Assembly: GCA_024279115.1 (NCBI GenBank)
Contig: JAJRRW010000068.1
Location: 22,860 to 86,859, forward strand
DNA length: 64,000 bases
DNA from: Alphaproteobacteria bacterium
GTDB taxonomy: Bacteria; Pseudomonadota; Alphaproteobacteria; Rhizobiales; JAKIUO01
Direction of reading: 5' to 3'
Shown one piece after another: positions 7,448-32,360 of the stretch (position 1 is its first letter; each line of letters begins with the position of its first letter). The notes beneath the pieces were generated by a model, which searched no databases, was not told the origin of the DNA, and saw only the letters and a list, made by a program, of their open reading frames with translations. The translations under genes and the position numbers were made by a program.

Positions 7448-7577
7448 GACCCGAGCGTTAGCAGAAAAGCCAAGAATCAGATAGCGGCTTATTCATAGCG
7501 ATAGCTTTGGCGCAGGTTTTTCGGCCAGTTACCGTAGACATAAAACAGGCTTTTACAAGGGCTTGACACGCTTGTAT

Positions 7578-8174
7578 TCAACTGTTTGGAGCGCGAACAA
7601 TCTGCACGGGGGCGCCTTTGTCTCGGGGAACAAAACTGGCGAACAAACGAATAGCTGTTGCCTCCATGGACCGAAACCGCAATTTGGCAAATGGCAGAGC
7701 CAGCTTCGACAGCTTGAAATCGGCTATTTTTTCGATACCTGCAGCAACCTTACTCGTTCGACCCGTATAAGGGCCAAATTGCTGCATTTTTTCAATACCG
7801 ACCTTGCCTGGCAGGCGCTTGGCCACTTCTCTTTCCCCGGAAAATTCAATCACCGTCACAAGGCTCATTTTAAAAACCGAAAAGCCTTTATAGACGCCCA
7901 GCAAATCCGGCGACAGCGCCCCGATAGACAGTCCGATGCGCGCGCTATTTTCTGGCCGCTCTGACGCTTTGATCATCAAGGGCGAACTGGCCCATTACCA
8001 GCCACGCGCGGCAAATGTCCGATCAAGGAATGATGTTAATGAGGTAGGTTGAGTGCCAAAATGCGCGGGAAGAGGCTTGAACTGAAACGAAAATCCCATT
8101 GCGCATGCCCGGGCAAAAACAGGTGCCACACCAACCAGCAGCAAGGTGGCAAACAAAAACAACAATGATTTCAA
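7578..8174 (-). pseudogene. Secreted hypothetical protein interrupted by one in-frame TAA (or two adjacent small ORFs)
   Basis: A TTG at 8174 sits behind gggaggg and gives KSLLFLFATLLLVGVAPVFARA, which looks like a signal peptide. The same frame continues into the 7578..7979 ORF, broken only by TAA at 7995-7997. Confidence 0.35.
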
Positions 8175-8441
8175 TTCGAACCCTCCCTATGGAATGTCGG
8201 TATGACCACGAAAGTCACCTTCTGACAAACGCCCCCCCCAATAACAGCCAGGCCAGCCTCACACGAGCTAGAATTGACATGCCCAAACTCAACCATGCGA
8301 ACAATCTTCATGGGGGCTGCGCTGTATCTTGAGGTGCAAAAGCGGCGCGAACTGGTTTTTATATTGAACCAGATCCAGTGTCGAAACGACAAATAAATAT
8401 AGGCTTCAAGCTTATGCTTATTTAATTCAAAGGAGTGGACA

Positions 8442-8786
8442 ATGATTTACAAGATTTTACTGACCTCTATCGCCATCGTGATGAGCACCACTATCGGCAG
8501 CGCCATGTCATTGGGTCCAGCCACCTCGCAACTGGGAGCATCCGTTGGCAACAACCAGCTGCAATTGATCGCGGACCGAAAAGACACGCGATCGAAACGG
8601 CGCGGTAGCCGCCGTAATACTAACAAGCTGTCGGCCTCACGAGGAGGCGTCAAAGACACCTGCCCTGGCGGAAACAAGCCCTGTATCAAAAAGCTTAAAG
8701 CCAGTTGCGACAAAGCCGGTGGCGGATTATCGACCGAGCCAGATGGCGGCGTGGACTGCTATGTCGTTGGTATTCATGACCAATAG
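8442..8786 (+). CDS. Small secreted basic/Cys-containing hypothetical protein
   Basis: RBS aaaggag lies 8 nt upstream. N-terminal signal-like MIYKILLTSIAIVMSTTIGSAMS. No family recognised. Confidence 0.5.
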   Translation: MIYKILLTSIAIVMSTTIGSAMSLGPATSQLGASVGNNQLQLIADRKDTRSKRRGSRRNTNKLSASRGGVKDTCPGGNKPCIKKLKASCDKAGGGLSTEPDGGVDCYVVGIHDQ

Positions 8787-9035
8787 TAGATGAGCCCCGG
8801 CGATATGAGGCTTGGAATGTTCCCCCTGGCATTTCGAGCCTCGAATTCCCTCTGGCGAGGTAATCCCAATGACAAGGGCGGGACCACCAATGCGGCCCCG
8901 CCCTTCAAATTTCGATATGTGTCACCCCAGCGGGGGCTGGGGTCCATACTCCCTTGCCCCTCAATTGAGAGAATGAACCCCCAATCGAAAGACTTGTGTA
9001 TGAATCCTCGCCTGCGCGGGGATGACAAATTCAGT

Positions 9036-10223
9036 TTAGTCATTCAGGCCTTGATAATAGTCCATCAGGATTTGCGCGACTTCGGGGCGCGAAAACTCTT
9101 TGGGCGGCGCTTCACCATTGCCGAGCATTTCGCGCACTGCGGTGCCAGATAGAAGCACGAAGTCTTCCTTGTTGTGATCCGGGGCTTCGCGCATCATCAC
9201 GACCTTATCGAGTTTTTTCGAGTAAGCCGTGTGGTCAGCGGCGAAAATTTCCAGTTCCAGAGCACCGGCTGGCACGTCGTCGAAAATTTCCTGAGCGCCA
9301 AAATCGGTGTAATAGTCACCAACCCCTGCGTGATCACGACCAACGATCAGATGGGTTGCCCCCATATTCTGGCGGAACACGGCATGCAGTACGGCTTCAC
9401 GTGGTCCGGCATAGAGCATATCGAACCCATAGCCGGTGACCATGGCGCTGTTTTCGGGGAAATAGATGTCGACCATCTTGCGGATCGAGGCATCGCGCAC
9501 ATCAGCAGGAATATCGCCCGCTTTCAACTTGCCCAGCAACATGTGAATGACCAGGCCATCAGCATCAAGACGGTCCATGGCCATGTGGCACAGCTCTTCA
9601 TGAGCACGATGCATGGGGTTACGGGTCTGGAAGGCCACAACCTTGTTCCAGCCGCGCGCCTTGATCTCGTCGCGAATTTCAACGGCGGTTTTGTAGGTAT
9701 CGCCAAAATCACTCTCGAAATAGGAATAGTTGAGCACCTGAATGGGGCCCGAAAGCGCCACATTGCCAGCCGCCAAAAACGCCCCAACCCCGGGATGGTC
9801 TTTGTCGGTGGTACCATAAACCTTTTCAGCCACGGTCATCATTTCCTCATCGGAAAAAGCCTCAACCGCTTCAACATTCATAATGGCAATCACCGGATTG
9901 CCATCGACATTGGGATCTTTCAAGGCAATGCGGTCCCCGGAACTGATCGAACCGGCGTCACGCACCATGTTGACAACCGGAGTTGGCCAGAACAGGCCGT
10001 TGGTGGTTTTCATGCCTTGAGCAACTGACAAGGTATCGGCCTTGTTCATATAACCGGTCAGCGGGTTGAAATAACCACCGCCCAGCATCACCGCATTGGC
10101 AGCGGCGGCCGAACTGACAGTGATTGATGTGAGACCATTTGCCTCGCTTTGCAGTTTTTCGTTTTCGGCAGGATCGGAGACGAACAGGGGATTGAGTTCA
10201 TCGGAGCCATGGGGCTTTATCAT
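9036..10223 (-). CDS. sat: Sulfate adenylyltransferase (ATP sulfurylase), single-domain dissimilatory type
   Basis: QTRNPMHRAHEEL and GRDHAGVG motifs. The start at 10223 (MIKPHG) has gaggaag upstream; the ORF track extends to 10250. Confidence 0.95.
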   Translation of the reverse strand: MIKPHGSDELNPLFVSDPAENEKLQSEANGLTSITVSSAAAANAVMLGGGYFNPLTGYMNKADTLSVAQGMKTTNGLFWPTPVVNMVRDAGSISSGDRIALKDPNVDGNPVIAIMNVEAVEAFSDEEMMTVAEKVYGTTDKDHPGVGAFLAAGNVALSGPIQVLNYSYFESDFGDTYKTAVEIRDEIKARGWNKVVAFQTRNPMHRAHEELCHMAMDRLDADGLVIHMLLGKLKAGDIPADVRDASIRKMVDIYFPENSAMVTGYGFDMLYAGPREAVLHAVFRQNMGATHLIVGRDHAGVGDYYTDFGAQEIFDDVPAGALELEIFAADHTAYSKKLDKVVMMREAPDHNKEDFVLLSGTAVREMLGNGEAPPKEFSRPEVAQILMDYYQGLND

Positions 10224-10618: not shown

Positions 10619-12289
10619 ATGGCTGGTGACGACGATCTGGAAGACGAATTTGCGGCGTTTGAACGCGAAGCAAAAGAAGCGGCTGCCAAAGCCCAGGAAG
10701 AAATGGCCAAAAACGCCAAAAAGGCGGAGCCCGCAGCTGAACCTGTTGCCGCGAGCGATGAGCCAGAAGAAGAAGACGAATTTGCAGCCTTTGAGCGTGA
10801 AGCCAGAGAAGCTGCCGCAGCCGCGGCCTCTTCCATGGGCGGCGGCGCAAGCGGCGGCACGTCCAGCGCAACCGCTTCAAGTGCACCAAAAGCTGACGAC
10901 AAAGCTGACGAAGAGGAAGAAGACGACACTCCCGTTGGTGTGCTGTCCGATGCTGAAAAAGCCGAAAGAGACGCGGCGCAAGCGGCGGCGGTTAAAACCA
11001 TTAACAAGGCCTCCAAGGCCCTGTTTGGCGCCACCAGCCAGACCATTCTTGTGGTCGGCGGTGGTATCGCTGGTGTCACGGCTGCCATTGAAGCGGCTGA
11101 AACCGGTTATGACGTCATACTGCTGGAAAAAAATTCCTATCTTGGTGGGCGGGTAACGCGGCTGAATCGCTATTTCCCCAAACTCTGTCACCCCTCTTGT
11201 GGTCTTGAGATCAACTATCAGCGCATCAAAAACAATCGCAATCTGAAAGTCATGACCATGACAGAAGTTGTTGGCGTTTCTGGCGCCAAGGGCGATTACA
11301 AGGTCAAAATCAAAACCGCACCGCGTTTTATTGACGAAGGTTGCAACGGTTGTGGCTCTTGTTCCAATGCCGTTGAGACAACCGTCGACAATGAATATAA
11401 TTACGGCATGGATCAGATCAAGGCGGTCAACCTGCCCCACGAACATGCCTTTCCCATGAAATATGTGATGTCACCAGACGTCATCGGCACCGATGATGCT
11501 GACAAAATCAAGGAGGCCTGTACGTCTGGTCATGTTGATCTTGAGGCCACCGCTACGGATGGCGATCTGTCGGTTGGAGCCATCATCTGGGCCACCGGCT
11601 GGACACCATATGACAGCAACAAGCTGGAGCATTACAGCTACAGTCATAGTGCCGACATCATCAATAATGTTGAGATGGAACGCCTCGCCAGTCCAGATGG
11701 ACCAACCAATGGCAAAATTCTCAAGCCATCGGATGGCAAAGAGCCCAAACGCATCGCCATGATCCAGTGTGCCGGATCGCGCGACATCAATCATCTGCCT
11801 TATTGCTCGATGATCTGCTGCCTCGCCAGCCTCAAGCATGCCGCTTATGTGCGTGAACAATATCCCGACGCGGAGGTTGATATTTATTATATCGACATTC
11901 GCGCCCACGATAAGATGAGCAGCTTTTATGAGCGCGTCAAACGCGACGCCAAAGTCAATTTCATCAAATCAAAACCCGGTCACATCACCATTGGTGCTGA
12001 TGGTCGCCCCTTGATCCACGGTGAAAATACCATCGGTGATCGTGAAATTTACGATGAAGCTTATGATCTCGTCGTTCTGGCCACAGGCATGGAGCCTAGC
12101 CTGCCCCTCGAAACAGATTTCGAAGCGGCCCCCGAACGCGACGAATATGGCTTCGTCATCAATGGATCGGACAGTGACAATGGTCAGTTCGCAGCTGGCG
12201 TTGCCGGTGGTCCATTTGACGTTGCGCTATCAACACAAACAGCAACAGCTAGCGCCTTGAAGGCCATTCAAGCTGTTCGCGGTAACTAA
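10619..12289 (+). CDS. qmoA: QmoA-like HdrA-family flavoprotein with a roughly 140-aa acidic/Ala-rich N-terminal extension
   Basis: The ATG at 10619 sits 8 nt after ggagg. FAD fold VVGGGIAGVTAAIEAAETG follows the extension. QCAGSRD and MICC motifs are HdrA/QmoA-like. It is the first gene of a four-gene operon. Confidence 0.85.
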   Translation: MAGDDDLEDEFAAFEREAKEAAAKAQEEMAKNAKKAEPAAEPVAASDEPEEEDEFAAFEREAREAAAAAASSMGGGASGGTSSATASSAPKADDKADEEEEDDTPVGVLSDAEKAERDAAQAAAVKTINKASKALFGATSQTILVVGGGIAGVTAAIEAAETGYDVILLEKNSYLGGRVTRLNRYFPKLCHPSCGLEINYQRIKNNRNLKVMTMTEVVGVSGAKGDYKVKIKTAPRFIDEGCNGCGSCSNAVETTVDNEYNYGMDQIKAVNLPHEHAFPMKYVMSPDVIGTDDADKIKEACTSGHVDLEATATDGDLSVGAIIWATGWTPYDSNKLEHYSYSHSADIINNVEMERLASPDGPTNGKILKPSDGKEPKRIAMIQCAGSRDINHLPYCSMICCLASLKHAAYVREQYPDAEVDIYYIDIRAHDKMSSFYERVKRDAKVNFIKSKPGHITIGADGRPLIHGENTIGDREIYDEAYDLVVLATGMEPSLPLETDFEAAPERDEYGFVINGSDSDNGQFAAGVAGGPFDVALSTQTATASALKAIQAVRGN

Positions 12290-12306: not shown

Positions 12307-14577
12307 ATGAGCGAAGAAGTTTTCGAACACAAACCCGCCGCCTATCTGTGCGGTGGTTGCGGCATCAAGGATGCTCTGGATATGGATGCGCTGGAAACAG
12401 CCATCACCGGCGGCATGATGGTCTCCAATGTCAAACAGTCCGATGCCTTTTGTTCCGGCAAGGGCCTGGAGACGATCAAGAGCGACATGAAAAGCGGCGA
12501 CGTCAATCAAGCCATTGTAGCTGGTTGTTCGCCGCGGGTCATGGTGCAGGAATTTAATGAGGTCGGCGGTCAGGTGTTTCGCGCCAATATGCGTGAACAG
12601 GTGATCTGGCAACAGCCCGCCAATAACGAAGACACGCAGGCCCTGGCCACCGATAATATGCGCATGGCCATTACCCAGGCCCGCAAGTCCGAGCCACCCC
12701 AGGCTCATTGGGATGGCGCAACCTCTTTGAAACTACTGGTGGTCGGCGGTGGTATCACCGGCCTGACAGCGGCGCGCGAAGCCTCCAAAACCGGTGCCCA
12801 AGTGGTGATTGTTGAAAAGACCGACAAGCTGGGCGGCTGGGCTGGCAAATGGAGCAAATTCATTCCCGAAAATGCCCCGTACCGCGAGCCTGAAGACAAT
12901 CCCGTCCCTGCCCTCATCGCCGAAGTCGAGAACGATGACAATATCACGGTATTGTTCGACACGATTGTCGATCGCACCGAAGGTGGTCCAGGTGAATTTT
13001 CCTGCCGCCTGAAAAATGGTTCGGGGACCAATTGGGATATTTATGGCGCGGTGGTTTTGGCCACGGGCTGGCGTCCTTACACCAGCGAAGATCAAAAGAA
13101 ATTCGGCATCGGCGAAACCGATGGCGTTGTCACCGACATTGAGATGGAAGAAAAGCTGTCCTCTGGTGATCTCAAAGATGTCAAAAATATCATCTTCATC
13201 ATCCCCGGCGATAGCGACCGCATGGTCTACAGCTCCGGCGTCTCTGACAAGGTGGCCATCAAACAGGCTCTGCAAATGACGCAGGCCGATCCCGATGTGA
13301 TGGCCTATATCATTCATGAAGATTTCCGCTCTCATGGTCTGGCCGAAGAATTTTATCGCCACGCCCAGGAAAAAGGCGTCATCTTCCAGCGCGGCGAAGT
13401 GAAAAGCATCAGCTCTGATCGAACCGTCACCGTTGATGACGAGCTTCTGGGGCTGGAAATCCCCATGAGCGGCATTGATCTGGTGGTTGTCTCAACCGGC
13501 ATGGTTCCCAACTCCACCAATATTGATCTTGAGGCCACCGAAAGAGGCGCCGATCAATTAAAGTCCGACATCAACCCCGTTGCGCCGATCTTTACGGTCA
13601 ACGGGACGCAGGTTGACGAGGACCTCGCGGAAACGGCGGCTGACGCTGAAGCAGAGGAAACGATCCCCGAAGGGGGTCCTCTGCTCAACCTGCAATATCG
13701 TCAAGGACCCCATGTGCCGGTTCTGGCCAACGGCTTTGCGGACAGTCACTATATCTGCTTCCCCTATGAAACACGCCGCTCGGGCATCTACACGGCTGGT
13801 CCGGTGCGCCGCGCCATGACTGCCTCTGAAGCCATCAACGATGCACAAGGTGCCGTCCTCAAGGCCATTCAGGCCATGCGTCAGGCCAATGAGGCCAAGG
13901 CGGTTCATCCGCGTGCGGGCGATTTGTCGTTCCCAGAATTTGGTCTCGATATCTGCACCAAGTGCCGTCGCTGCACGGTGGAATGTCCGTTCGGTGCCAT
14001 TGATGAAGATCCTGAAACTGATTATCCAGTGGTCAACCCGACGCGTTGTCGTCGTTGCGGCACCTGCATGGGCGCTTGTCCCGTGAGCACCATCAGCTTC
14101 AAAAACTACAATCCGGCCCAGGTCTCCGACATGGTTGCCGCTGGTACAGAAGAGTGCCCTCCCGACAAACCACGTATTCTGGTGCTGGCTTGCGAGAACG
14201 ATGCTTATCCGGCAATGGATATGGCGGGCATTAACAGACTTGAAGCCAGTCCCTATATGAGAGTGATACCGGTGCGCTGCCTTGGCTCCGTGACCCTTTT
14301 GTGGGTCAAAACGGCGCTGGAAAAAGGCTATGATGGCATCATGCTGCTGGGCTGCAAATCCGGCGATGATTATCAGTGTCATTTCGTCAAGGGATCCGGC
14401 ATTGCGCAAGAACGCATGAGCAAGGTGGGTGACACGCTACGCTCCATGATGATGGAAGAAGAACGGGTCCAGGTCAACGAGATCGCCATCGCCGACAGCG
14501 AGCGGGTCACACAGATCCTCAATAATTTTGGCAAGCAGATCGAAGATATCGGTCTCAACCCATTTAAAGGATTTTAG
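12307..14577 (+). CDS. qmoB: QmoB-like HdrA-family flavoprotein with two ferredoxin motifs and a C-terminal MvhD-like domain
   Basis: VVGGGITGLTAA. Ferredoxin motifs CTKCRRCTVECP and CRRCGTCMGACP. The C-terminal ILVLACENDAYPA..VRCLGSV..GCKSGDDYQCHF matches the MvhD/FlpD type. Confidence 0.9.
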   Translation: MSEEVFEHKPAAYLCGGCGIKDALDMDALETAITGGMMVSNVKQSDAFCSGKGLETIKSDMKSGDVNQAIVAGCSPRVMVQEFNEVGGQVFRANMREQVIWQQPANNEDTQALATDNMRMAITQARKSEPPQAHWDGATSLKLLVVGGGITGLTAAREASKTGAQVVIVEKTDKLGGWAGKWSKFIPENAPYREPEDNPVPALIAEVENDDNITVLFDTIVDRTEGGPGEFSCRLKNGSGTNWDIYGAVVLATGWRPYTSEDQKKFGIGETDGVVTDIEMEEKLSSGDLKDVKNIIFIIPGDSDRMVYSSGVSDKVAIKQALQMTQADPDVMAYIIHEDFRSHGLAEEFYRHAQEKGVIFQRGEVKSISSDRTVTVDDELLGLEIPMSGIDLVVVSTGMVPNSTNIDLEATERGADQLKSDINPVAPIFTVNGTQVDEDLAETAADAEAEETIPEGGPLLNLQYRQGPHVPVLANGFADSHYICFPYETRRSGIYTAGPVRRAMTASEAINDAQGAVLKAIQAMRQANEAKAVHPRAGDLSFPEFGLDICTKCRRCTVECPFGAIDEDPETDYPVVNPTRCRRCGTCMGACPVSTISFKNYNPAQVSDMVAAGTEECPPDKPRILVLACENDAYPAMDMAGINRLEASPYMRVIPVRCLGSVTLLWVKTALEKGYDGIMLLGCKSGDDYQCHFVKGSGIAQERMSKVGDTLRSMMMEEERVQVNEIAIADSERVTQILNNFGKQIEDIGLNPFKGF

Positions 14578-14579
14578 AC

Positions 14580-15179
14580 ATGACAGTCCCTATGCCGACA
14601 TCCAGTCGCAAATATGATCTCAATTTTGCCCGCTGGGTCCGCGACAATGTCGCGGGCGGCGACAAAATGAACATGTGCATGCAATGCGGCACCTGTTCGG
14701 GTTCATGTCCCATCGGCACAGAAATGGAAGATGGTCCGCGCAAACTGTTCATGATGATCAGAGCCGGCATGAAAGAAGAAGTGCTTTCCTCCAATTCTGT
14801 TTGGGAATGTACCAGCTGCTATCGCTGTGTGGTACGATGCCCGCGCGGCGTCCCTGTCACCTATCTGATGCAGGGCCTGGCGGCTCTTGCCTCCAAAGAG
14901 GGCTATGCCCCCAAAGTTGAGAACAATTATTTCTCGCGATATTTCTGGAAGAGTGTTGAGCTTACCGGCAAGACCGATGAACGCCTTGTGCCCACGGCCT
15001 ATTTCTTCTCATTTGGCCTGATCGAGGGCATCAAGCGCTCACTTGGCAATCTGAAGATTGCCTTCAACATGGCCAAAGCTGGACGCATGCATATCGGACT
15101 GCCTCACCGCATCAAGGATACCAAAGGCCTCAAGGCCATCCTTGCCAAAGCCGCGCAAATCGAAGATCAAAAAAGCTAG
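14580..15179 (+). CDS. hdrC: HdrC-like 4Fe-4S dicluster subunit
   Basis: CMQCGTCSGSCP and CTSCYRCVVRCP motifs. Starts 2 nt after the qmoB stop. Confidence 0.8.
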   Translation: MTVPMPTSSRKYDLNFARWVRDNVAGGDKMNMCMQCGTCSGSCPIGTEMEDGPRKLFMMIRAGMKEEVLSSNSVWECTSCYRCVVRCPRGVPVTYLMQGLAALASKEGYAPKVENNYFSRYFWKSVELTGKTDERLVPTAYFFSFGLIEGIKRSLGNLKIAFNMAKAGRMHIGLPHRIKDTKGLKAILAKAAQIEDQKS

Positions 15180-15191
15180 GAAGGGAGTTTT

Positions 15192-16100
15192 ATGATGAGT
15201 AAGAAAAAGAAAATGACCTATTATCCGGGCTGTAGTTCGCAAGGCTCGGGTCGCCATCTGGACGAATCTATCCGCGCAATCCTGCCTGATCTCGGGGTTG
15301 ACGTGGTTGATATTGATGACTGGAACTGTTGCGGAGCCTCCGTTGGTAATATTGGTGGTGGCCCCTTGCCCAACCTGGCGCTGACAGGCCGCAATCTGGC
15401 TCTGGCACAAGAACAGGGCAATCAGGACATTGTGACCGGTTGTGCCGCTTGCTATTTGAACACTCATGGCGGCAATGAGAAAATCAAGGCTGACGTCAAA
15501 AAACGTCGCGACGTCAATGATGCTCTGGGAGAGGCTGGCCTTTCCTATGATTACGACCTCGATGTACATCACGTCATGGAAGTCATCGTCAATGATATCG
15601 GCATGGAAGAAGTCGAGAAACAAGCCACCAACAAGCTCAAGGGCCTCAAAGTGGCCGGCTGGGTCGGCTGCCAGACGGTGCGCCCGTTCGCGGGGACGGA
15701 AACAGGTGGCAAATACGCCACCTATGAAGACCCCACCTTCCTTGACGAGATCACAGAAGCCTGCGGCGCTGAAGTCACCGACTTTGCTCCCAAGACGAAC
15801 TGCTGCGGTGGGTCTGTTGCCGTTATGAAACCCGAAAAAACCCTGCACCTGATGAAAACCATTCTCGATGCAGCCGTTGAATCTGGCGCTGACGTGGTGA
15901 GCACTCCTTGCCCGCTTTGCCAGACCAATCTGGAAATGTATCAAGACGCCATCAACAAGGAATTTGGCACGAACTATAATATGCCAGTGGTGTTCCCCAG
16001 CCAGCTCATCGCGGTTGCCATGGGCAAGGACAAGGAAAAGGATGCCGGCCTGCAACGCCAGACCATCCGCTCGAAAAAACTTGAAGATATGGCCAAATAG
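15192..16100 (+). CDS. hdrB: HdrB-like subunit with two CCG domains
   Basis: YYPGCS..NCCGAS and GCQ..NCCGGS..CPLCQ motifs, i.e. duplicated CCG domains. Confidence 0.85.
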   Translation: MMSKKKKMTYYPGCSSQGSGRHLDESIRAILPDLGVDVVDIDDWNCCGASVGNIGGGPLPNLALTGRNLALAQEQGNQDIVTGCAACYLNTHGGNEKIKADVKKRRDVNDALGEAGLSYDYDLDVHHVMEVIVNDIGMEEVEKQATNKLKGLKVAGWVGCQTVRPFAGTETGGKYATYEDPTFLDEITEACGAEVTDFAPKTNCCGGSVAVMKPEKTLHLMKTILDAAVESGADVVSTPCPLCQTNLEMYQDAINKEFGTNYNMPVVFPSQLIAVAMGKDKEKDAGLQRQTIRSKKLEDMAK

Positions 16101-16130
16101 CCGCTTCAATGCACACAACAATAAAGATCA

Positions 16131-16165
16131 AAAAGGCGCTGTAAATTCTCACAGCGCCTTTTTTG
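16131..16165 (+). terminator. Rho-independent terminator after hdrB
   Basis: aaaaggcgctgt / acagcgcctttt stem followed by a T-run. Confidence 0.75.
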
Positions 16166-16419
16166 CTGGCGATCGGTTTTGAACGTGAACTCTGCCTTAC
16201 CAGCATGTTAAATATTGGTAATAAAAGGCAGTAACTTCAAATTTTTACCCCAAACAGGTCTAATTACCGGCATTATGTAGCCTCGTTTCTCAGTCAATTC
16301 TATAGCTATTGAAGTAACGCTCGTTAAGTCCACAAATGGCTGTTTGGTCAAGTGGCAAGGGCAACAGGCAACAAATGACTTGAGACAAGTAAATTGGAAA
16401 TACCGGGGGGTATTGTAAT

Positions 16420-16824
16420 ATGGCCGATTTTGAAAATGCCTTGGCAAAAGCCGTCATGAGCTCGCTAAGCGAAGAAGGCGAAAAGGAGGATGTTTGTAAG
16501 CGGCCTCCCGAGATTGAGGCGCGGCGCATCCTTGATCTGTTTAACGATATGAATGTGACCAATGGGTTCGCCACCGGCGACCTGGTCACCTGGAAACAGG
16601 GGTTGAAAAATGGCCGCTATCCGCAAAAGAATTATCCAGCCATTGTGACGCGCATCTATGAGACCCCGCTCTCGCGCTCTGATATGGAATCAGGCTCCAA
16701 CCATTTTCGCGAACCGCTGGACCTGGTGATCCTTGTCGATACCGGCGATGAAGTCAGCGAATTTCATGTCGATAGTCGGCGCTTCAAACCTTATGAGGGG
16801 CAAATTGACGGATTTGGTGACTAG
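16420..16824 (+). CDS. Hypothetical protein
   Basis: 134-aa ORF with plausible composition. No family recognised. Confidence 0.45.
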   Translation: MADFENALAKAVMSSLSEEGEKEDVCKRPPEIEARRILDLFNDMNVTNGFATGDLVTWKQGLKNGRYPQKNYPAIVTRIYETPLSRSDMESGSNHFREPLDLVILVDTGDEVSEFHVDSRRFKPYEGQIDGFGD

Positions 16825-17034
16825 CCCTCGCATGCTTTTCCCCTAGGCATCACCCATGACCTGGATCAAGTCACCAACGATAAGCTTTTCCGCGTTACGA
16901 GGTGCAAGCTCATAAAAAATAATTTATAGGCACCTTGGGGTAGTCTCGCAGATTGTGACGTTTTCTGCGGGACTGCTTTCCGTTCCTGGATCGTGCGAAC
17001 ATCTAGAGTGTCCCTCTTGACCAAGACGGATACC

Positions 17035-25076: not shown

Positions 25077-25182
25077 CTAGGGTCTTTCCGTTTTAGGTTG
25101 ACAAAATGAAAGCCCCTAGCTCTTTGTTTTATCGTGCTTCTTATCGGAAAACCGGTACCCACTTTTCTCGGAAGCACTCTAA
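25077..25182. repeat. Adjacent repeat modules C and D joined at CTAG
   Basis: ctagggtctttccgttttaggttgacaaaatgaaagcccctag, followed by ctctttgttttatcgtgcttcttatcggaaaaccggtacccacttttctcggaagcactcta. The same modules occur at 39083-39125 and 39284-39350. Confidence 0.8.
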
Positions 25183-25249
25183 TCGGGGTTTGGGGACTAG
25201 TCCCCAACGCTGTCTGCGAAGACGCCCGTCCGGCGAGGACATTACTTTT

Positions 25250-28200
25250 CTACTGCACAACCGCGCCCTCACCGACCACCACAAAAGGGGCCCAATAGGA
25301 GGGGTGCGAGGCCAGATCATCGTCTTTCTTTTGAAGCACCCACAACATGGCCAGACGCAGCGCCTCGGCTCTGCCAACGGGCTGACCGGCGGTTTGCCCC
25401 TCGTCAATATATTTGAAGGCTTTGGTGGTCAGCAAGGTGGCGGCGTCTGAATAGACCGGCCAGTGGGAGACCAGCAGCGATTTGGCGCCTGCGTAAAAGA
25501 ACGCCTGCGCCAGACCTGACAGAGCTTCGGCCCCCGGCTTATCGCCAGAGGCGGTGTTGCAGGCCGACAGCACAACCCAGTCCGCATTGAGGTGCAATTG
25601 CGTAACTTCTGATGCGGTGAGCAGGCCATCGTCGATAGTGGTGGCCTTTTGCGGCACACTGAGCGCCAGAGCGGGCTCCCCCAATCCCTTGATATCTCCC
25701 GATATCAGCCCGTGCGTGGCGAAATAAACGATCTTGTGACGCGCCAGTTCACCAGACTTGTTCAACTGTTTGACAATGGCCTCGCTGGCCCCTCGCCCCA
25801 GCTTGATGTCGCCAAGCGGTACATTGAGCGTCTTGGCGACATTGATCAGCTCGTCTCTGGTGTCGGGCAATTGCGACAGCTGTGACAGGGCCGCCAGGTT
25901 GACCTGCCCACCGCGATAAAAACTGGCAAAACCAGCCGTGTTCGAGACCCGCGCGATGGGCTTTTTTTGTTGCGAAAACACCGGATCTCCAAAACCGATC
26001 AGGGCCTTAGGCGGGCTGTCGCTTTTACCGGCAAACTGGCGCAAGGCTTTGAGGGAGGCGATACTTGGCAAAGTGGTCAGGGCATATTTTTTAATCAACC
26101 AGCTTGCCTCGCGATAGATTTGACTTTCGCCTGGCGCGCCAGATGTGGGCGGGTCGGTGATCAACACCTGAAACGGCAGACCGGTCAAGGCGTCCGACGC
26201 GATGATGATCAGATGTTTCTTGCTGCCGATGACGTCTTCGAGGGGTTGCAGCAGATCCTTGTAGAGCTTGTGCGAAGCATCCAGATCAAACGAGGTTTTG
26301 ACTTTCACCTCCAGGGCCGGTTGCGCATTTGATGCAAACCCCCTTGTGCCAGCGGTCAGCGGATTGAGGGAGAGCCGCAAATGGGCTACCTGTTTGCGCA
26401 ATTCGCTGCGCTTCAGGGGCACCCGGTGCCAGGCGAATTGTGTATTGGTCAGCGCCCAGATATAAACCGCCTGATTGGAGGTCATGAAATAAATCAGCGC
26501 CTCATCGCCTTGAAGCTGTTTTTGAACATCGCTGCCGGTCAGCGGTTGGGGATTGGCAAGGCTGGCATATTCAGGAAACTGCGCAGCCAGTTTTTGATCA
26601 AGGCTTTTGATCTTGTCGCCGACCTCGATGAGCGAAACCCGCAGCCTTTTAATCGCCGCACCATCACGCGATTTGCTGGTCGCACCAACCAGGGAGGCCA
26701 GCTTGCTATCGAGTTTGGTATAACGCCGTGTGAGGTACTGACGGTGGCGCACATTGCTGGCCAACTGCCCACTACCCGCCGCAAAACGCGCCGACATTTG
26801 CGCAAGAGCCGCGCCTGCCGAGGTGCGAAGGGCTTTTTGCGCCGCATGCAACCCCTGTTCCATCAAGGCATCGCGATTTGAGCCGGTTTTTTGCAGCAGA
26901 TCCTTGTTGCTGGCCACATGCCACGAGGTGATCGCCAGACCGGAAAACACACCGCGACGCCCGCCGCCTTTGGCATCATTTTTACCTTCTTGTTTATGGA
27001 TCAGTTGCAGTTCTTCAATGCGCGCGGCCCGGCGATAATTGGCAAGGGCAACAAGATAGTTCTGCTGCCACAGATAAAGCTTGCCCATCTGATAATGAAT
27101 ATAGCCGGTTTTGATATGATCGCGACCATTGGCCTTGATGGAAATCTCCAGCGCCTTTTTATAATGGCGCTCAGAAGCGACATAATCCTGGCGGGCAAAA
27201 TCATTTTCGCCAAGCAATCGCCAGATATTGGCCAGCATGGGATGGTTTTCGCCAAAGGCTTTTTGATTGATCGCGATGGCTTTACGAAACAGTTTTTCCG
27301 CGCCTATATAATCTTTGCGATTGCCGTAAAGAGCGGCCAGATTGCTCATGGCAAGGGCCACTTGCGGATGGCGGGGGCCATAGGCCTTGAGCAGCGCATC
27401 CATGGCCAGCTTATAGGTCTTTTCAGCCGCCACAAATCGCTTGGCGATGCGATAGGAGCCGGCCAGATTATCATAAAATACGCCGATCTGTGGATCGGAG
27501 GGCCTTGCGGGTTTTAGATAGATGGCAATTCCACGCTCTTGCAGCTTTATGGCCTCGCCTGTGCGGCCCTGATAGCCATAGACAGCGGCCAGATTGTTCA
27601 GGGCCAGCGACACCGTGCGATGCTCGGGACCCAGATTTTCTTCAAATAGGGCCAGCGCTTTCTTGTGAAATTTCTCGGCCACATCAAATTTCTCAATCTC
27701 GATATTGAGCACACCAAGATTGTCGTAAAGACGCCCCAGATTGATCGGTTTGGCATTGCTGGCATCCAGATGAAAAGCCAGCGCTTTTTTATAAGCAGCG
27801 CCACTTTCGCCATAACGCCCGGTTTCGCGGTACAGCCCGCCCAGATTGCTGTAAACTGCACTTAATGTGGTTTTTTTTGGTTTTGATCGGGCCTGCTCGC
27901 GTTTGAGCGCCGTCTTCATCAAAGTCTCGGCTTTCTTGAATCTGGCGATTTGACGATTGAGCTGACCCAGAAAAATCATCGCATGAATGACTTTGGTGGC
28001 GCTTTCGCCCTCTTTTTTTATGAGAATTTCAAGGCGCCGCGCATAGACTGGTACCGCCGCTTCATAGCGCCCCAGATCCTCATAAAGCGTCGCCAGATTA
28101 CGCAGATGAACCAGTAATTGCGGGCTGTCTTTCCCTTCTTTTTTTTCGGTAATTTCAATCGCCCGCACCAGCGCCCGCCCCGCCAGGTCAAAATCCTTGG

Positions 28201-29149
28201 CGCGGTAAGCATAAGCCGACAAACGATTATGCTTGCCCGCCAGAGAAATATCATCAACGCCGAGCTTGGCTTCATTGAGGGAAATGAGCTGTTTGGCCAG
28301 CAAAATGGCCCGATCATACTGTTTCAGGCTGGAGGCGATTTCCGACAATTCCGTCATGGTCTGCAAGGTCAGGGGATGATCTGGACCTAACAGGATTTTG
28401 CGCGCTTGATAGACCTCGTCAAATAGCGTGATCGCAGCTTTATAATCTTTTTGCTTGGTATAAATTACCGCCCGATTGCTGATCGACATTATAGTGGTTT
28501 TATGGCGTCGCCCCAGCACCGTTTCATTGATGTTGATGGCGCGCTTGATCTTGACAATGGCCCCGCCATACTCCCCCGCATTGATCTCAATAACCCCCAG
28601 GCGATCAAGCGCAAAGGCAAGTCGTTTGGCATTTTTGGGAGGCGTACCACCATACAGCTCCACAAGCTGCAACAAGATTTTGGTTTCTTTGGCTGGCTGA
28701 CCGATCGCCAACAAGGCTGTTTGCAGATCTTCCAGGGTCCCCAATATGCGCTTGTCATTTGGCGGAAGCAGAGCCTTGCGGATCGCCAACGCCTCTTCAT
28801 AAAGGGGCACCGCGTGCTTGTAGCGCCTCGTCGAGGTATAAAGGACGGCCAGATTATTGATCTGGGACGCCGTCACCAGATGCTTGTTACCCAGCAGCTT
28901 GCGCGCCAGTTTAAGAGCTGTTTCGACCTCGACTTCCGCCTCCTTGTAGAGCTTTAATTTAAAGAAGTTCAAAAACAGCGCATGGGCCTTTTTAAAACGG
29001 GCGATGTCGCTGGCCTGGGAGCTGGAGAGTTCGGATTTCGCAGCTTTTGGCTTCGCCTCCTCGCCACTGGCCGCAACAAACATGCCCAAAGAAAACAATA
29101 GGATTGATGTCAAAAACATCGAGAAACTGCGTCTAAAATGAGAGGCCAT
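25250..29149 (-). CDS. Secreted multi-TPR protein with C-terminal CHAT (caspase-like) protease domain
   Basis: Signal peptide MFLTSILLFSLGMFVAASG. About 900 aa of TPR-like repeats (NLAxxY..G.Y.eAe periodicity). The C-terminus has the His/Cys dyad context YFATHG and VVLSACNTASGD. Confidence 0.9.
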   Translation of the reverse strand: MASHFRRSFSMFLTSILLFSLGMFVAASGEEAKPKAAKSELSSSQASDIARFKKAHALFLNFFKLKLYKEAEVEVETALKLARKLLGNKHLVTASQINNLAVLYTSTRRYKHAVPLYEEALAIRKALLPPNDKRILGTLEDLQTALLAIGQPAKETKILLQLVELYGGTPPKNAKRLAFALDRLGVIEINAGEYGGAIVKIKRAININETVLGRRHKTTIMSISNRAVIYTKQKDYKAAITLFDEVYQARKILLGPDHPLTLQTMTELSEIASSLKQYDRAILLAKQLISLNEAKLGVDDISLAGKHNRLSAYAYRAKDFDLAGRALVRAIEITEKKEGKDSPQLLVHLRNLATLYEDLGRYEAAVPVYARRLEILIKKEGESATKVIHAMIFLGQLNRQIARFKKAETLMKTALKREQARSKPKKTTLSAVYSNLGGLYRETGRYGESGAAYKKALAFHLDASNAKPINLGRLYDNLGVLNIEIEKFDVAEKFHKKALALFEENLGPEHRTVSLALNNLAAVYGYQGRTGEAIKLQERGIAIYLKPARPSDPQIGVFYDNLAGSYRIAKRFVAAEKTYKLAMDALLKAYGPRHPQVALAMSNLAALYGNRKDYIGAEKLFRKAIAINQKAFGENHPMLANIWRLLGENDFARQDYVASERHYKKALEISIKANGRDHIKTGYIHYQMGKLYLWQQNYLVALANYRRAARIEELQLIHKQEGKNDAKGGGRRGVFSGLAITSWHVASNKDLLQKTGSNRDALMEQGLHAAQKALRTSAGAALAQMSARFAAGSGQLASNVRHRQYLTRRYTKLDSKLASLVGATSKSRDGAAIKRLRVSLIEVGDKIKSLDQKLAAQFPEYASLANPQPLTGSDVQKQLQGDEALIYFMTSNQAVYIWALTNTQFAWHRVPLKRSELRKQVAHLRLSLNPLTAGTRGFASNAQPALEVKVKTSFDLDASHKLYKDLLQPLEDVIGSKKHLIIIASDALTGLPFQVLITDPPTSGAPGESQIYREASWLIKKYALTTLPSIASLKALRQFAGKSDSPPKALIGFGDPVFSQQKKPIARVSNTAGFASFYRGGQVNLAALSQLSQLPDTRDELINVAKTLNVPLGDIKLGRGASEAIVKQLNKSGELARHKIVYFATHGLISGDIKGLGEPALALSVPQKATTIDDGLLTASEVTQLHLNADWVVLSACNTASGDKPGAEALSGLAQAFFYAGAKSLLVSHWPVYSDAATLLTTKAFKYIDEGQTAGQPVGRAEALRLAMLWVLQKKDDDLASHPSYWAPFVVVGEGAVVQ

Positions 29150-29377
29150 CTGCCAGGTTCCTTCGCGAGTTATCCTGCGCTATCGCACCATTTAAACGAG
29201 CCGATGGCAAGGCCTGTTTACGCGGTCGGCGCACAAACAACCCGCCCGCCCGGTCTCTCGAACAGACGATCTTTACGCGCCGCAATGACATATTTTTACC
29301 TAACGCCATGTTCAAGCTGGATTGCGCGCCCGCAAGCAGCTAAAATAAGAAAAATATTTTATTTGCAAAAATATTTT

Positions 29378-29404
29378 GAACCTGACCCGTCGCCAACGCG
29401 ACTA
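29378..29404 (+). promoter_or_regulatory. Candidate ECF-type promoter upstream of the sigma gene
   Basis: GAAC, then 17 nt, then CGACTA, ending about 29 nt before the ATG at 29433. It resembles the GGAAC..CGTC architecture of ECF promoters. Confidence 0.3.
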
Positions 29405-29432
29405 TCCATTCACAAGCGGAGACCAAACGCCC

Positions 29433-30005
29433 ATGAGCGGAACCTTCGGAAAATCTTCCGACCGGAAGCTGATCGAGCGGATCGCCAACGCTGACAAGGC
29501 CGCTGTACAGGCCCTGTTTGCAAGGTTTCATGTGCGTATCTATCGCTTTATTATACGAATGGTGGGGAATGAAGCTGTGGCTGAAGAATTGGCAAACGAA
29601 GTTTTTCTGGATGTCTGGCGCCAGGCCGGGCGGTTTGAAAGCCGCTCATCGGTCAGCACCTGGCTGATGGCGATTGCCCGCAACAAGGCGATTTCGCACT
29701 TACGCCGCAAAAAAGATCTGCCACTTGACGAGGATGCCGCCAACCAGATTGTCGATACGCAGGACAATCCTGAGGTCGTCGCCCAAAAAAGCGACAAGGG
29801 TGCGGCTATACGCGAGGCTATAGATTCCTTATCGCCGAACCACAAAGCGGTGATTGATCTGGTCTACTACCATGAATTGTCGGTGCGCGAGGTCGCCAAA
29901 GTACTTGATGTGCCGGCCAACACGGTCAAACCCCGCATGTTTCACGCCCGAAAAAAACTGGCTGAAAAACTGACCAAAGCTGGAATTGATCGCGGCTGGC
30001 CCTAA
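29433..30005 (+). CDS. ECF-type RNA polymerase sigma-70 family factor
   Basis: Region 2 (YRFIIRMVGNEAVAEELANEVFLDVW) and region 4 HTH (LSVREVAKVLDVPANTVKPRMFHARKKL). The alternative TTG at 29376 is less likely. Confidence 0.85.
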   Translation: MSGTFGKSSDRKLIERIANADKAAVQALFARFHVRIYRFIIRMVGNEAVAEELANEVFLDVWRQAGRFESRSSVSTWLMAIARNKAISHLRRKKDLPLDEDAANQIVDTQDNPEVVAQKSDKGAAIREAIDSLSPNHKAVIDLVYYHELSVREVAKVLDVPANTVKPRMFHARKKLAEKLTKAGIDRGWP

Positions 30006-30063
30006 GGGTTGAGCGTATTTTGAGAGTTGCCGCCATGATGAATTTGGTGAGGAGGGTTCGAAA

Positions 30064-30756
30064 ATGAGCGAGAAAGACGACACAATGCTTGGAACAAGTT
30101 TGCAAAATGAAGTGGCCTCCCTGTTGCCATTTTATATCACCGGCCGCCTTGGCCTGCGCGACCAGATGCGGGTCGAGCAATGGCTCAAGGATGACCCGCG
30201 CGGACAAAAAGCGCTGGATAATGCCTATGCTGATCAGCGCGCCTCCATCGATGCCAATGAAGCCATCGCCTCCCCGTCTGGAGCGCTTGGCCGCTTGCTC
30301 AAGGATATCGACGCCGAGCCCTCGCAAACCTGGTCGAACTATGTCGGCGGCAATATGCTGTCATGGGTGATGAGTTGGCTCAATATCATCCCTTCGACCC
30401 TGACATGGGGCGCTGTTGCCGCTTTGTTGCTGGTGACTGTAACGCAATCCACCCTGCTTTTGACCAAAACTACCAATACGCCGTTTGAAGTGTCCAACGG
30501 TAAAAACGGTGCGGCCACAAATCCCGACATCAAAGGAACCAGCGCCTTTATCCGCTTTGCTCCCAATACCGGCATCAATGATATCTCCACCTTGTTGCAT
30601 GAGGCTGGTGCCGTTTTGATCGATGGACCGCGCGGCAAGAACACATATGGGATACGTTTGGTTGAAGACAATAAACGCCCCTCCATCAAAGAGCGACTGG
30701 CAAGCCTTGCTAAACGCTCGGATCTTGTGCATTTCATTGCGGAGAAAAAGGACTAG
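30064..30756 (+). CDS. Putative single-pass anti-sigma factor
   Basis: Position directly after the sigma gene. N-terminal LLPFYITGRL..RVEQWL helix pattern, one TM (WGAVAALLLVTVTQSTLLL), and RBS ggaggg. Confidence 0.6.
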   Translation: MSEKDDTMLGTSLQNEVASLLPFYITGRLGLRDQMRVEQWLKDDPRGQKALDNAYADQRASIDANEAIASPSGALGRLLKDIDAEPSQTWSNYVGGNMLSWVMSWLNIIPSTLTWGAVAALLLVTVTQSTLLLTKTTNTPFEVSNGKNGAATNPDIKGTSAFIRFAPNTGINDISTLLHEAGAVLIDGPRGKNTYGIRLVEDNKRPSIKERLASLAKRSDLVHFIAEKKD

Positions 30757-32133
30757 ATGCGCAAAGTATTCACCTTGCTTGCTTGCTTAACAGCCCTTTA
30801 CAGCCTGTTGATGAACGATCAGGCGCTGGCCGCCACCGGCTGCCCCTCCGGCGGGGCGATCAGCAAACATCAACGTGAGATGCTGGACAAGCTGCCCCCG
30901 CCAATGCAAACCATCCTGCAAGCGGTCAGACGCCAGACCCAAACCGCCTGCCAGGCCCCTGTTAGCAGCCAGTTACCATCTACGGTAATAGATCCTTTTT
31001 TCATTCCCGTTGGTCTGGATACCAACTCACCAGCCATAGATGGCGAGGCCACTCCAGATGAAGTGGTGGCGATGATCAATGGAGATGGCGCCAATATTGA
31101 TGCCGTTGCCGCCAGCAACGGTCTCACCGTACGCAGCCGGCGGCGCTCTGCCCTGCTTGGCGCGTTCATTGTACGCTTTGGCATCACTGATGGCCGCTCC
31201 CCAGCTGCTGCCATTGCCCTCTTGCAGGCCAATGGCGCCATCGACACCCCCGGCCCCAACCACCTCTATCGGTTACAAGGCTCCGTGCGGGAGCCAAATG
31301 CCTTCGAAAAGGCCCGCTATGCCCCCCAGAAATTTGGCCGACCAGCAAGCGGTTTGCAACTGACGGGAAAAGATGTCGTCATTGGCGTCATTGATACCGC
31401 CATCGACCCGGACCATCCTGACCTCAAAGACGCGGTGCTTGAAAGCTATGATGCCCTGCCCGATCAACCGGTCAATAACCGCCGTCACGGCACCGCGGTT
31501 GCCGGTTTGCTGGCCGGGCGCTCGATGATCCTTGGGGTCGCCCCAAAAGCCAGACTGCTGGTAGCGCGGGCTTTTGATGTGCCGGTCAAAAATGCCAAGG
31601 CCAGCGCCACCACCTATCAAATCCTTGAAGCCCTTGACTGGACGGTCGAAAAAGGCGCCCAGATTATCAATATGAGTTTCACCGGTCCTCGCAATAATCT
31701 GATGTCAAAAGCCTTGTCGGCGGCCGCCGGAAAAAATGTGCTGCTGATTGCCGCCGCTGGCAATAATGGCCCCAAGGCGCGCCCGGCCTATCCTGCGGCC
31801 GAACAATCCGTACTGGCGGTGACGGCGACTGACGTGGACAATCGCATCTATTCCCATGCCAATGCGGGAGGCTATGTATTTGTCGCCGCTCCTGGCGTCG
31901 ATGTGCTCGCCGCCGTGCCTGACAACGGCGTCGATATGGTCAGCGGCACCAGCTTTGCCGCGCCATTTTTGTCGGGTCTGGCCGCCTTGATGCTGGAACA
32001 AAACAAGGGGCTGACGCCTCGCCAATTTGCCAAAACCATCGAGCTGACCTCCCATGATCTTGGTCAGCCCGGGCGCGACCATGTGTTTGGCGTCGGGCTG
32101 GCGAACCTGACCAAAGCGCTGGCACAAAAATAA
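30757..32133 (+). CDS. Secreted subtilisin-like serine protease (peptidase S8) with propeptide-like N-region
   Basis: Triad contexts VIGVIDTAID, HGTAVAGLLAG and SGTSFAAPFLSG, plus a signal peptide. The start abuts the anti-sigma stop (TAGATG). Confidence 0.9.
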   Translation: MRKVFTLLACLTALYSLLMNDQALAATGCPSGGAISKHQREMLDKLPPPMQTILQAVRRQTQTACQAPVSSQLPSTVIDPFFIPVGLDTNSPAIDGEATPDEVVAMINGDGANIDAVAASNGLTVRSRRRSALLGAFIVRFGITDGRSPAAAIALLQANGAIDTPGPNHLYRLQGSVREPNAFEKARYAPQKFGRPASGLQLTGKDVVIGVIDTAIDPDHPDLKDAVLESYDALPDQPVNNRRHGTAVAGLLAGRSMILGVAPKARLLVARAFDVPVKNAKASATTYQILEALDWTVEKGAQIINMSFTGPRNNLMSKALSAAAGKNVLLIAAAGNNGPKARPAYPAAEQSVLAVTATDVDNRIYSHANAGGYVFVAAPGVDVLAAVPDNGVDMVSGTSFAAPFLSGLAALMLEQNKGLTPRQFAKTIELTSHDLGQPGRDHVFGVGLANLTKALAQK

Positions 32134-32360
32134 AGTTCATCAATCACTTAATTCATTTTTCTGACATGCTGGCCGACCATACCTTGTCGCGCGCTGCCCC
32201 ACAGCCGTTAAGCATGAATGGCAGGCGAAATGCCCATTTCGCGGTTTATGTCCTACACTGCGCAAAGCCATAGTTTTCCTTGACAAGACATATTGTCGCG
32301 GACAAACATATGAGTGTGAAATAGATCCAACTTAAATAACCAGAAAAACTGGAGACTAGA

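Follow-up and report, generated by a model that had tools for sequence, protein, structure and literature searches.

A gene for a giant, exported TPR-CHAT protein is transcribed away from the genes of an ECF (extracytoplasmic function) sigma factor, an anti-sigma factor, and an S8 subtilase in a stretch of alphaproteobacterial DNA (Rhizobiales; contig JAJRRW010000068.1, positions 22,860 to 86,859). The question raised by this locus is whether the four genes form one signaling system, or whether the TPR-CHAT gene is a neighbor of a smaller unit. The whole stretch analyzed, called the window here, is 64 kb in length, and its coordinates are counted from its first nucleotide. The reading favored here, with a probability of about 0.7, is that the locus belongs to a widespread and uncharacterized type of ECF operon, found mainly in Hyphomicrobiales, and that the TPR-CHAT protein is a neighbor of this operon in one lineage.

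All four open reading frames (ORFs) lie exactly where the preliminary description of this DNA had placed them, and the gap between the divergent TPR-CHAT and sigma genes is 283 bp in length (29150 to 29432), as it had given. The three co-directional genes that it had named (ECF sigma factor, single-pass anti-sigma factor, and secreted S8 protease) also stand, based on Pfam and NCBIfam domains and on the transmembrane helix in an AlphaFold2 model of the anti-sigma factor. The same is true of the TAGATG junction, where the S8 start codon abuts the anti-sigma stop codon. The genes and the sequence elements of the gap are as follows.

25250 to 29149, minus strand: TPR-CHAT gene, 1299 amino acids (Pfam), lineage-specific divergent neighbor of the sigma gene
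29295 to 29324, plus strand: intergenic block TTTACCTAACGCCATGTTCAAGCTGGATTG, written TTTAC-N-GCTGGATTG, identified by sequence conservation
29378 to 29402, plus strand: predicted ECF-type autoregulatory promoter GAACC-N16-CGAC, ending 31 nucleotides before the sigma ATG
29433 to 30005, plus strand: ECF sigma factor, 190 amino acids, NCBIfam PRK12515 (NF009168) subfamily (Pfam and NCBIfam)
30064 to 30756, plus strand: single-pass anti-sigma factor, 230 amino acids (position, topology, and family names)
30757 to 32133, plus strand: secreted S8 subtilase, 458 amino acids (Peptidase_S8, 2.5e-45)

The sigma, anti-sigma, and S8 operon

Gene neighborhoods were surveyed in 99 related loci, and the window proteins were mapped by tblastn onto 94 of them. 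The survey loci are metagenome contigs fetched by the single peptide pattern LLP[WF]Y[VAI]TG[RK]. In every locus with upstream sequence, the anti-sigma gene directly follows the sigma gene. Sequence extends 1.3 kb or more beyond the anti-sigma gene in 41 loci, and in 33 of these the gene directly downstream, on the same strand, is S8. This order extends to distant loci, where the anti-sigma protein is 25–37% identical, with S8 directly after the anti-sigma gene in 27 of 30 (26 of 28 without duplicate contigs). Among the distant loci, L022/L023 and the Methylocapsa plasmid pRX1 depart from this order. In two additional genome loci, S8 is 4 kb downstream or split into two ORFs.

The sigma factor of the window contains the domains Sigma70_r2 (5e-17) and Sigma70_r4_2 (1.7e-12) and matches TIGR02937 (2.3e-31). 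It scores 267 bits against PRK12515, above the cut-off of 236, and the sigma factors of distant S8-linked loci likewise exceed this cut-off. Taken together, the adjacency of sigma and anti-sigma genes, the presence of S8 at distant loci, and the PRK12515 scores mark the three-gene operon as a deeply conserved unit. The PRK12515 model carries no name beyond “RNA polymerase sigma factor”, and no mention of it and no documented link to S8 were found in the literature.

The anti-sigma factor has a large family. When 1.84 billion cluster representatives were searched with its profile, 1047 clusters matched at E ≤ 1e-3, of which 345 matched at E ≤ 1e-10, and almost every one is full-length (about 225 amino acids). 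A word-indexed search returned 25 close relatives and no more, all from metagenomes or metagenome-assembled genomes (MAGs), and an exact look-up of the window anti-sigma protein gave no contig on record. Where a source is named, it is Hyphomicrobiales, Hyphomicrobiaceae, or a “Rhizobiales” MAG. JGI often labels the relatives “anti-sigma factor RsiW”, and a few of them match zf-HC2.

The diversity of two broad anti-sigma alignments (A2 and A3) made them unsuitable as seeds of a genome scan, and a narrower one (A4) led to only seven genome loci. Neither tblastn of the anti-sigma protein nor megablast of the whole locus against plasmids gave a match, and tblastn of the sigma factor against plasmids gave one useful match, Methylocapsa pRX1. 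This Methylocapsa polymorpha plasmid (locus L014, NZ_CP136863.1, 191900 to 196240) is the sole example found in a cultured organism. It carries a 620-amino-acid S8 upstream, with the PRK12515 sigma factor and the family anti-sigma factor downstream, among insertion sequence (IS) elements, and is a possible experimental handle.

In 51 of 61 related loci, the sequence GAACC-N16-CG[AT]C is found 30–65 nucleotides upstream of the start of sigma. The window copy at 29378 to 29402 is predicted from its sequence to be the autoregulatory ECF promoter of the sigma operon, and a promoter guessed in the preliminary description at 29378 to 29404 coincides with this family-wide motif. There are two exact copies in the window in all, the other at 8366 to 8390. 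This second copy (GAACCAGATCCAGTGTCGAAACGAC, plus strand) lies 52 nucleotides upstream of an ORF at 8442 to 8786 (plus strand), which encodes a 114-amino-acid protein outside any Pfam family, with a signal peptide and a C-terminus rich in Cys. This ORF is possibly part of the sigma regulon. With 0.75 chance matches expected in the window, the second copy is only a lead.

The block at 29295 to 29324 is kept in every locus of the clade in which the TPR-CHAT gene adjoins the operon (the CHAT clade, described below), including those that lack S8, and its full pattern is present in no other locus. It resembles what we take to be the alphaproteobacterial housekeeping promoter (the Caulobacter sigma-73 consensus), and may be either a housekeeping-type promoter facing the sigma operon or the site of a regulator. 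A sigma-70 consensus scan of the 283-bp gap found nothing.

The TPR-CHAT protein and its place beside the operon

The TPR-CHAT protein is composed of the following parts.

29069 to 29149, minus strand: N-terminal signal-peptide-like leader, amino acids 1–27 (...FVAA/SGEE), read by eye from the sequence
27140 to 28879, minus strand: TPR array, amino acids ~91–670, of the kinesin-light-chain-like TPR_12/TPR_10 type (Pfam)
25268 to 26278, minus strand: CHAT caspase-fold domain, amino acids 958–1294 (Pfam CHAT, 8.8e-53)
25712 to 25714 and 25559 to 25561, minus strand: CHAT dyad, His1146 and Cys1197, invariant in 19 homologues

The array matches TPR_12 at 2e-83 and TPR_10 at 2.4e-70, and in a PDB sequence search it matches the TPR of kinesin light chain at 1e-27. 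The preliminary description had assigned about 900 amino acids to TPR. The array itself stands and the length does not, as the repeats detected by hidden Markov model (HMM) span about 580 amino acids and are followed by a helical linker. The CHAT domain scores 180 bits against a cut-off of 24, and both His1146 (YFATHG) and Cys1197 (LSACNTASG) are invariant across the 19 aligned homologues. All 19 carry a hydrophobic N-terminal leader that ends, by eye, at an AxA-like site. Together with the Pfam domains, these features bear out the earlier call of an exported TPR-CHAT protein of 1299 amino acids. The leader looks Sec-type because the RR of the window leader is not conserved, and a Tat signal (FRRSF) was rejected for the same reason. 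No solved CHAT structure was matched with the CHAT domain by PDB sequence search, using either the single sequence or a profile.

The CHAT half of the protein has at least 3263 relatives at E ≤ 1e-10, most of which are exported TPR-CHAT proteins of 900–1050 amino acids. Three TPR-CHAT homologues of about 45% identity were sampled on long contigs, and all three lie away from sigma, anti-sigma, and S8 genes. Among the surveyed loci, CHAT adjoins the module solely in the clade of the window, in which the anti-sigma protein is at least 60% identical (L001, L002/L003, L004, and L007–L011).

In the distant loci that have enough upstream sequence, the neighbors vary. They are homologous giant DUF11-like proteins in L012, L013, L053, L062, and L040, a VWA protein in L095, an autotransporter in L082, and a C14 caspase-FGE fusion in L040. 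The DUF11-like genes of L012 (3575 to 9142), L013 (2590 to 9369), L062 (5612 to 9127), and L053 (3 to 1754), all on the minus strand, encode 1171–2259 amino acids and occupy the divergent position held by CHAT in the window.

The promoters differ in the same way as the neighbors. A second copy of the ECF motif in distant loci faces the giant DUF11-like genes of L013, L053, and L062, where it is on the minus strand and at or just upstream of the gene start. A second copy faces a TPR protein in L012 and the VWA gene in L095, and in L040 it precedes a DUF11-like gene downstream of S8. Since the second motif faces the neighboring gene, the divergent neighbor in these other lineages looks, from sequence, like a member of the sigma regulon. 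In the window, no ECF motif facing the CHAT gene is found in the gap, even with one mismatch or relaxed spacing.

S8 is absent in five members of the CHAT clade (L002, L004, L005, L011, and L017), three of which (L002, L004, and L011) visibly keep CHAT, sigma, and anti-sigma without it. A neighbor-joining tree of the anti-sigma proteins recovers the CHAT clade as monophyletic, with the S8-less lineages at its base and S8 present in every outgroup. The sigma factors of the S8-less sister lineages fall under the PRK12515 cut-off of 236, at 201 bits for L002 (9350 to 9955) and 183 bits for L004 (6687 to 7217), and the canonical GAACC..CGAC motif is absent upstream of sigma in these lineages. The low score and the missing promoter in L002 and L004 suggest rewiring or decay after the loss of S8.

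These observations fit best with a TPR-CHAT protein that is a periplasmic caspase-fold protease of a very large, usually unlinked family, and that took the divergent position in one lineage. The preliminary description had seen two dedicated proteases wired to one sigma/anti-sigma pair and a neighborhood of four genes. The first claim holds for S8 (33 of 41 loci) and is not supported for CHAT, which adjoins the operon in the clade of the window only and lacks an ECF promoter. The second fails as a conserved arrangement, given that CHAT is clade-restricted and some clade members lack S8; what does hold is the three-gene operon.

Several points weigh against treating CHAT as a bystander, and against the breadth of the survey behind that view. 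In all nine clade loci that reach far enough, the divergent gene on the upstream side of sigma is CHAT. In L004, CHAT, sigma, and anti-sigma stay together although both flanks differ. The loss of S8 is confined to CHAT-bearing lineages, and C14 caspase-fold genes are located near two distant modules, L040 and L077. Because the loci were retrieved by one peptide pattern, the survey is a sample and not a census, and it contains the duplicate loci L022/L023 and L070/L071. The clade-wide position of CHAT, the context of L004, the pattern of S8 loss, and the C14 genes keep a functional link alive. Such a link of CHAT to the operon is rated as unlikely to doubtful.

Details of the two C14 loci are as follows. 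Directly upstream of sigma in L040 is a gene (7173 to 9251, plus strand) for a Peptidase_C14 caspase fused to an FGE-sulfatase domain, and downstream of S8 in the same locus is the gene (12492 to 16889, plus strand) for a 1465-amino-acid DUF11-like protein preceded by an ECF promoter. In L077, a C14 homologue is located about 7 kb upstream of the module.

Two explanations would give CHAT a role. The first, put forward in the preliminary description, is a four-gene periplasmic cascade with the TPR-CHAT protein as sensor or scaffold, and with CHAT and/or S8 cleaving the anti-sigma factor or each other. The nine of nine clade loci and the different genomic context of L004 speak for it, and both proteases are predicted to have intact active-site residues and export signals. 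A precedent for CHAT in ECF signaling is the fused TPR-CHAT anti-sigma factor DdvA (PMC11506125). DdvS/DdvA of Myxococcus xanthus consists of an ECF sigma factor and a transmembrane, zinc-binding anti-sigma factor fused to a periplasmic TPR-CHAT part, and controls a CBASS/CRISPR defense island (PMC11506125). Such a cascade is nonetheless unlikely, as distant modules are without CHAT, some clade members are without S8, the CHAT gene has no ECF promoter, and homologous TPR-CHAT genes stand alone elsewhere.

The second explanation is a split DdvA-like system, in which the TPR-CHAT protein of the clade took over site-1 cleavage of the anti-sigma factor and made S8 dispensable. DdvA is proposed to cleave itself by way of its CHAT domain before RseP acts (PMC11506125). 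The five S8-less loci are all inside the CHAT clade, all outgroups keep S8, and the S8-less loci keep both the CHAT dyad and the periplasmic domain of the anti-sigma factor. The sample is small, however, with one or two loss events, and the drift of the S8-less sigma factors (183–201 bits) and the loss of the canonical promoter could equally be decay or rewiring. There is also no detectable sequence similarity to DdvA, Csx29, or separase chains, and S8 could sit elsewhere in the S8-less genomes. This takeover is considered improbable. The reading retained here is that of a three-gene operon with TPR-CHAT as a neighbor in one lineage.

The anti-sigma factor and its possible coupling to S8

The anti-sigma factor and the S8 subtilase have the following parts, all on the plus strand. 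Those of the anti-sigma factor are taken from the AlphaFold2 model.

30088 to 30315, plus strand: helical N-domain of the anti-sigma factor, amino acids 9–84
30394 to 30465, plus strand: transmembrane helix of the anti-sigma factor, amino acids 111–134, STLTWGAVAALLLVTVTQSTLLLT
30466 to 30534, plus strand: disordered linker of the anti-sigma factor, amino acids 135–157
30535 to 30744, plus strand: periplasmic beta-alpha-beta-beta-alpha-beta domain of the anti-sigma factor, amino acids 158–227
~30757 to 30831, plus strand: signal peptide of S8
31054 to 31281, plus strand: prodomain-like segment of S8, conserved among homologues
31366 to 32097, plus strand: catalytic domain of S8, with D213, H244, N336, and S399

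A ribosome-binding site (GGAGG) is present upstream of the anti-sigma gene. The full-length AlphaFold2 model of the protein was built from a 77-sequence alignment and has a mean predicted local distance difference test (pLDDT) score of 85. In the favored reading, the N-domain is the cytoplasmic part that would bind sigma, and the linker is flexible. The anti-sigma factor has no Pfam family. Two weak NCBIfam anti-sigma matches (5.7e-5 and 4.6e-4) are both under cut-off, and the family profile matched no anti-sigma factor among solved structures (best E-value 0.19). The N-domain has no Cys or His motif, and thus no HxxxCxxC zinc-binding (ZAS) motif. With sub-threshold HMMs and no solved anti-sigma factor matched, the assignment rests mainly on position, topology, and family names.

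Aligned with AK.1 protease and subtilisin BPN', S8 has D213, H244, N336, and S399 at the catalytic positions, which gives an Asp-His-Ser triad in this order and the oxyanion Asn. A segment of about 76 amino acids, conserved in 29 homologues, separates the signal peptide from the catalytic domain. This prodomain-like segment has no Pfam match and no PDB profile match. A lipobox (LLAC) was considered for S8 and rejected, because the motif lacks conservation and the h-region is not long enough. In the close relative L008, the S8 gene (10694 to 12069) is split into ORFs of 329 and 130 amino acids. The split reflects either a pseudogene with a frameshift or an error in assembly.

The periplasmic domain of the anti-sigma factor was also modeled alone with AlphaFold2 (pLDDT 86, predicted TM-score (pTM) 0.70). 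No Pfam match was found for this C-domain at E ≤ 10. Its top Foldseek matches include subtilase prosegments and I9-type inhibitors, with TM-scores of 0.55–0.70, and the prosegments give the lowest root-mean-square deviation (rmsd) among the matches, 2.3–3.4 Å. The match to 3cnq_P has a TMq of 0.63, a TMt of 0.70, and an rmsd of 2.5 Å. Further matches of the prosegment type are 1spb_P, 1scj_B, the EpiP prodomain, pro-subtilisin E, POIA1, and the PC1/3 prodomain. The model suggests that the C-domain is prosegment-like. Subtilisin prosegments and I9 inhibitors (3CNQ_P, 1SPB_P, 1SCJ_B, 3T41, and 1ITP) share its predicted beta-alpha-beta-beta-alpha-beta fold of about 70 amino acids. As in these proteins, the C-domain finishes with a free C-terminal tail, and an S8 protease is encoded beside it. 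Unlike them, the C-domain is tethered to the anti-sigma factor and not to the protease, it has no significant sequence similarity to them, and its ferredoxin-like fold is very common.

A mechanism can be proposed on this basis. The sigma/anti-sigma/S8 operon would be positively autoregulated from GAACC-N16-CGAC at 29378 to 29402, and since S8 lies in the autoregulated operon, it would always be a sigma-dependent output. S8 may then act on, or be held by, the periplasmic domain of the anti-sigma factor, either as a docking site or as a target of degradation. This coupling, which draws on the modeled structure, is put forward tentatively. Docking or degradation of the domain would expose the linker to site-1 and RseP-type processing. 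Given the similarity of the domain to a subtilase prosegment, the activity of the protease would exert feedback on the stability of the anti-sigma factor before intramembrane proteolysis. A fuller version, in which the domain mimics an I9-like prosegment that docks to, inhibits, or is consumed by S8, and in which CHAT was in addition recruited and able to replace S8, is doubtful.

Against a prosegment-like domain coupled to S8 stand four results. The Foldseek E-values of the prosegment matches are 0.02–0.1 and not significant. Generic ferredoxin-like folds (ACT, S6, RRM, and PII-like) score close behind the prosegments. An hhalign comparison of the anti-sigma factor with the S8 prodomain is colinear and falls on the C-domain, but has a probability of 5–8% (P of 0.004–0.007). 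Finally, the periplasmic domain is still conserved in the S8-less relatives.

The last result bears equally on another explanation, that S8 is purely an output that matures or turns over sigma-dependent secreted proteins, while the anti-sigma domain senses an unrelated signal. S8 is predicted to be co-transcribed behind the autoregulated promoter, and the same promoter precedes the giant DUF11-like, VWA, and TPR genes beside distant operons. S8 also appears to own a prodomain-like segment, and both the lack of statistical significance in the prosegment resemblance and the retention of the anti-sigma domain where S8 is absent agree with a pure output. What this explanation leaves aside is that the anti-sigma factor and S8 are tightly co-inherited, down to 25% identity, that the anti-sigma stop and S8 start abut, and that subtilase prosegments are the structural matches with the lowest rmsd. 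A pure output role is plausible, though short of probable.

Genomic setting and comparison with known systems

Around the locus, the scanned genes have housekeeping roles. They include purD, xseA, SLT lytic transglycosylases, UPF0114, and an amino-acid ABC transporter. The 64-kb window contains no tandem repeat arrays, and the neighboring genes provide no cas context. PADLOC defense-system models gave nothing specific with the four proteins, only generic TPR and subtilase matches. A role in a defense island was rejected based on the housekeeping neighbors, the lack of a specific PADLOC match, and the lack of tandem repeat arrays.

Two further features lie at the outer ends of the locus.

32225 to 32242, plus strand: weak terminator-like hairpin after S8, 7-bp stem, from a consensus scan only
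25123 to 25183, minus strand: partial match to the Brucella small RNA (sRNA) CI408 (RF02599), just 3' of the CHAT stop codon

The hairpin is the probable end of the operon. The RF02599-like stretch scores 33 bits against a gathering threshold of 398, and an Rfam scan of the locus gave this far-sub-threshold partial match and nothing else. Its fold is not unusual (z of −1.4), and it is probably a shared terminator or repeat fragment.

The logic of the window operon is similar to that of AlgU-MucA-MucB-MucC-MucD and RpoE-RseA/DegS, which have an ECF sigma factor, a single-pass anti-sigma factor, an autoregulated operon, and a periplasmic serine protease that is encoded with the pair or acts on it. 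Unlike these systems, the protease of the window is an S8 subtilase and not a PDZ protease of the HtrA/DegS type, there is no RseB/MucB homologue, and the periplasmic domain of the anti-sigma factor is unrelated.

Csx29 of the type III-E craspase is cytoplasmic and bound to Cas7-11. It shares the TPR plus CHAT architecture and the caspase-like His/Cys dyad with the TPR-CHAT protein of the window. Unlike Csx29, the window protein has a signal-peptide-like leader, and the window has neither repeat arrays nor a cas context. The analogy to Csx29 drawn in the preliminary description is therefore sound at the level of domain class; a more specific link is not, given the leader, the lack of repeat arrays, and the lack of a specific defense-model match.

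The closest characterized case is DdvS/DdvA. Both it and the window have a periplasmic TPR-CHAT part with a His/Cys dyad beside an ECF sigma/anti-sigma pair, and regulated proteolysis of the anti-sigma factor is proposed. In the window, the CHAT protein is separate and secreted, and the anti-sigma factor carries a small alpha/beta domain, no CHAT, and no HxxxCxxC. The window genes also have housekeeping neighbors and no defense island, and no similarity in sequence to solved CHAT chains could be detected.

A literature search found no paper describing an operon of ECF sigma, anti-sigma, and S8, with the ECF Hub group descriptions outside the search and earlier cataloguing possible. The main text of the ECF reclassification paper makes no mention of CHAT, S8, or peptidase (PMC7826278). 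The analysis defines a large, uncharacterized group that combines a PRK12515 sigma factor, a Pfam-less anti-sigma family of about 1000 clusters, a near-obligate S8 partner, and a defined promoter.

ECF sigma/anti-sigma pairs are a major mechanism of bacterial signaling, and to our knowledge the trigger of anti-sigma destruction is not known in most ECF groups. The group described here offers a testable structural hypothesis for how a protease and an anti-sigma factor communicate. If the prosegment mimicry were true, the operon would be a self-contained “protease-sensing” ECF switch found across more than 1000 protein clusters. If CHAT were able to replace S8, the window locus would be a split version of the TPR-CHAT anti-sigma factor DdvA. 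The analysis corrects the tempting reading of the giant TPR-CHAT protein as a member of a conserved cascade. The lineage-specific pattern of CHAT and S8 is a natural experiment on caspase-fold proteases in ECF signaling outside the fused DdvA.

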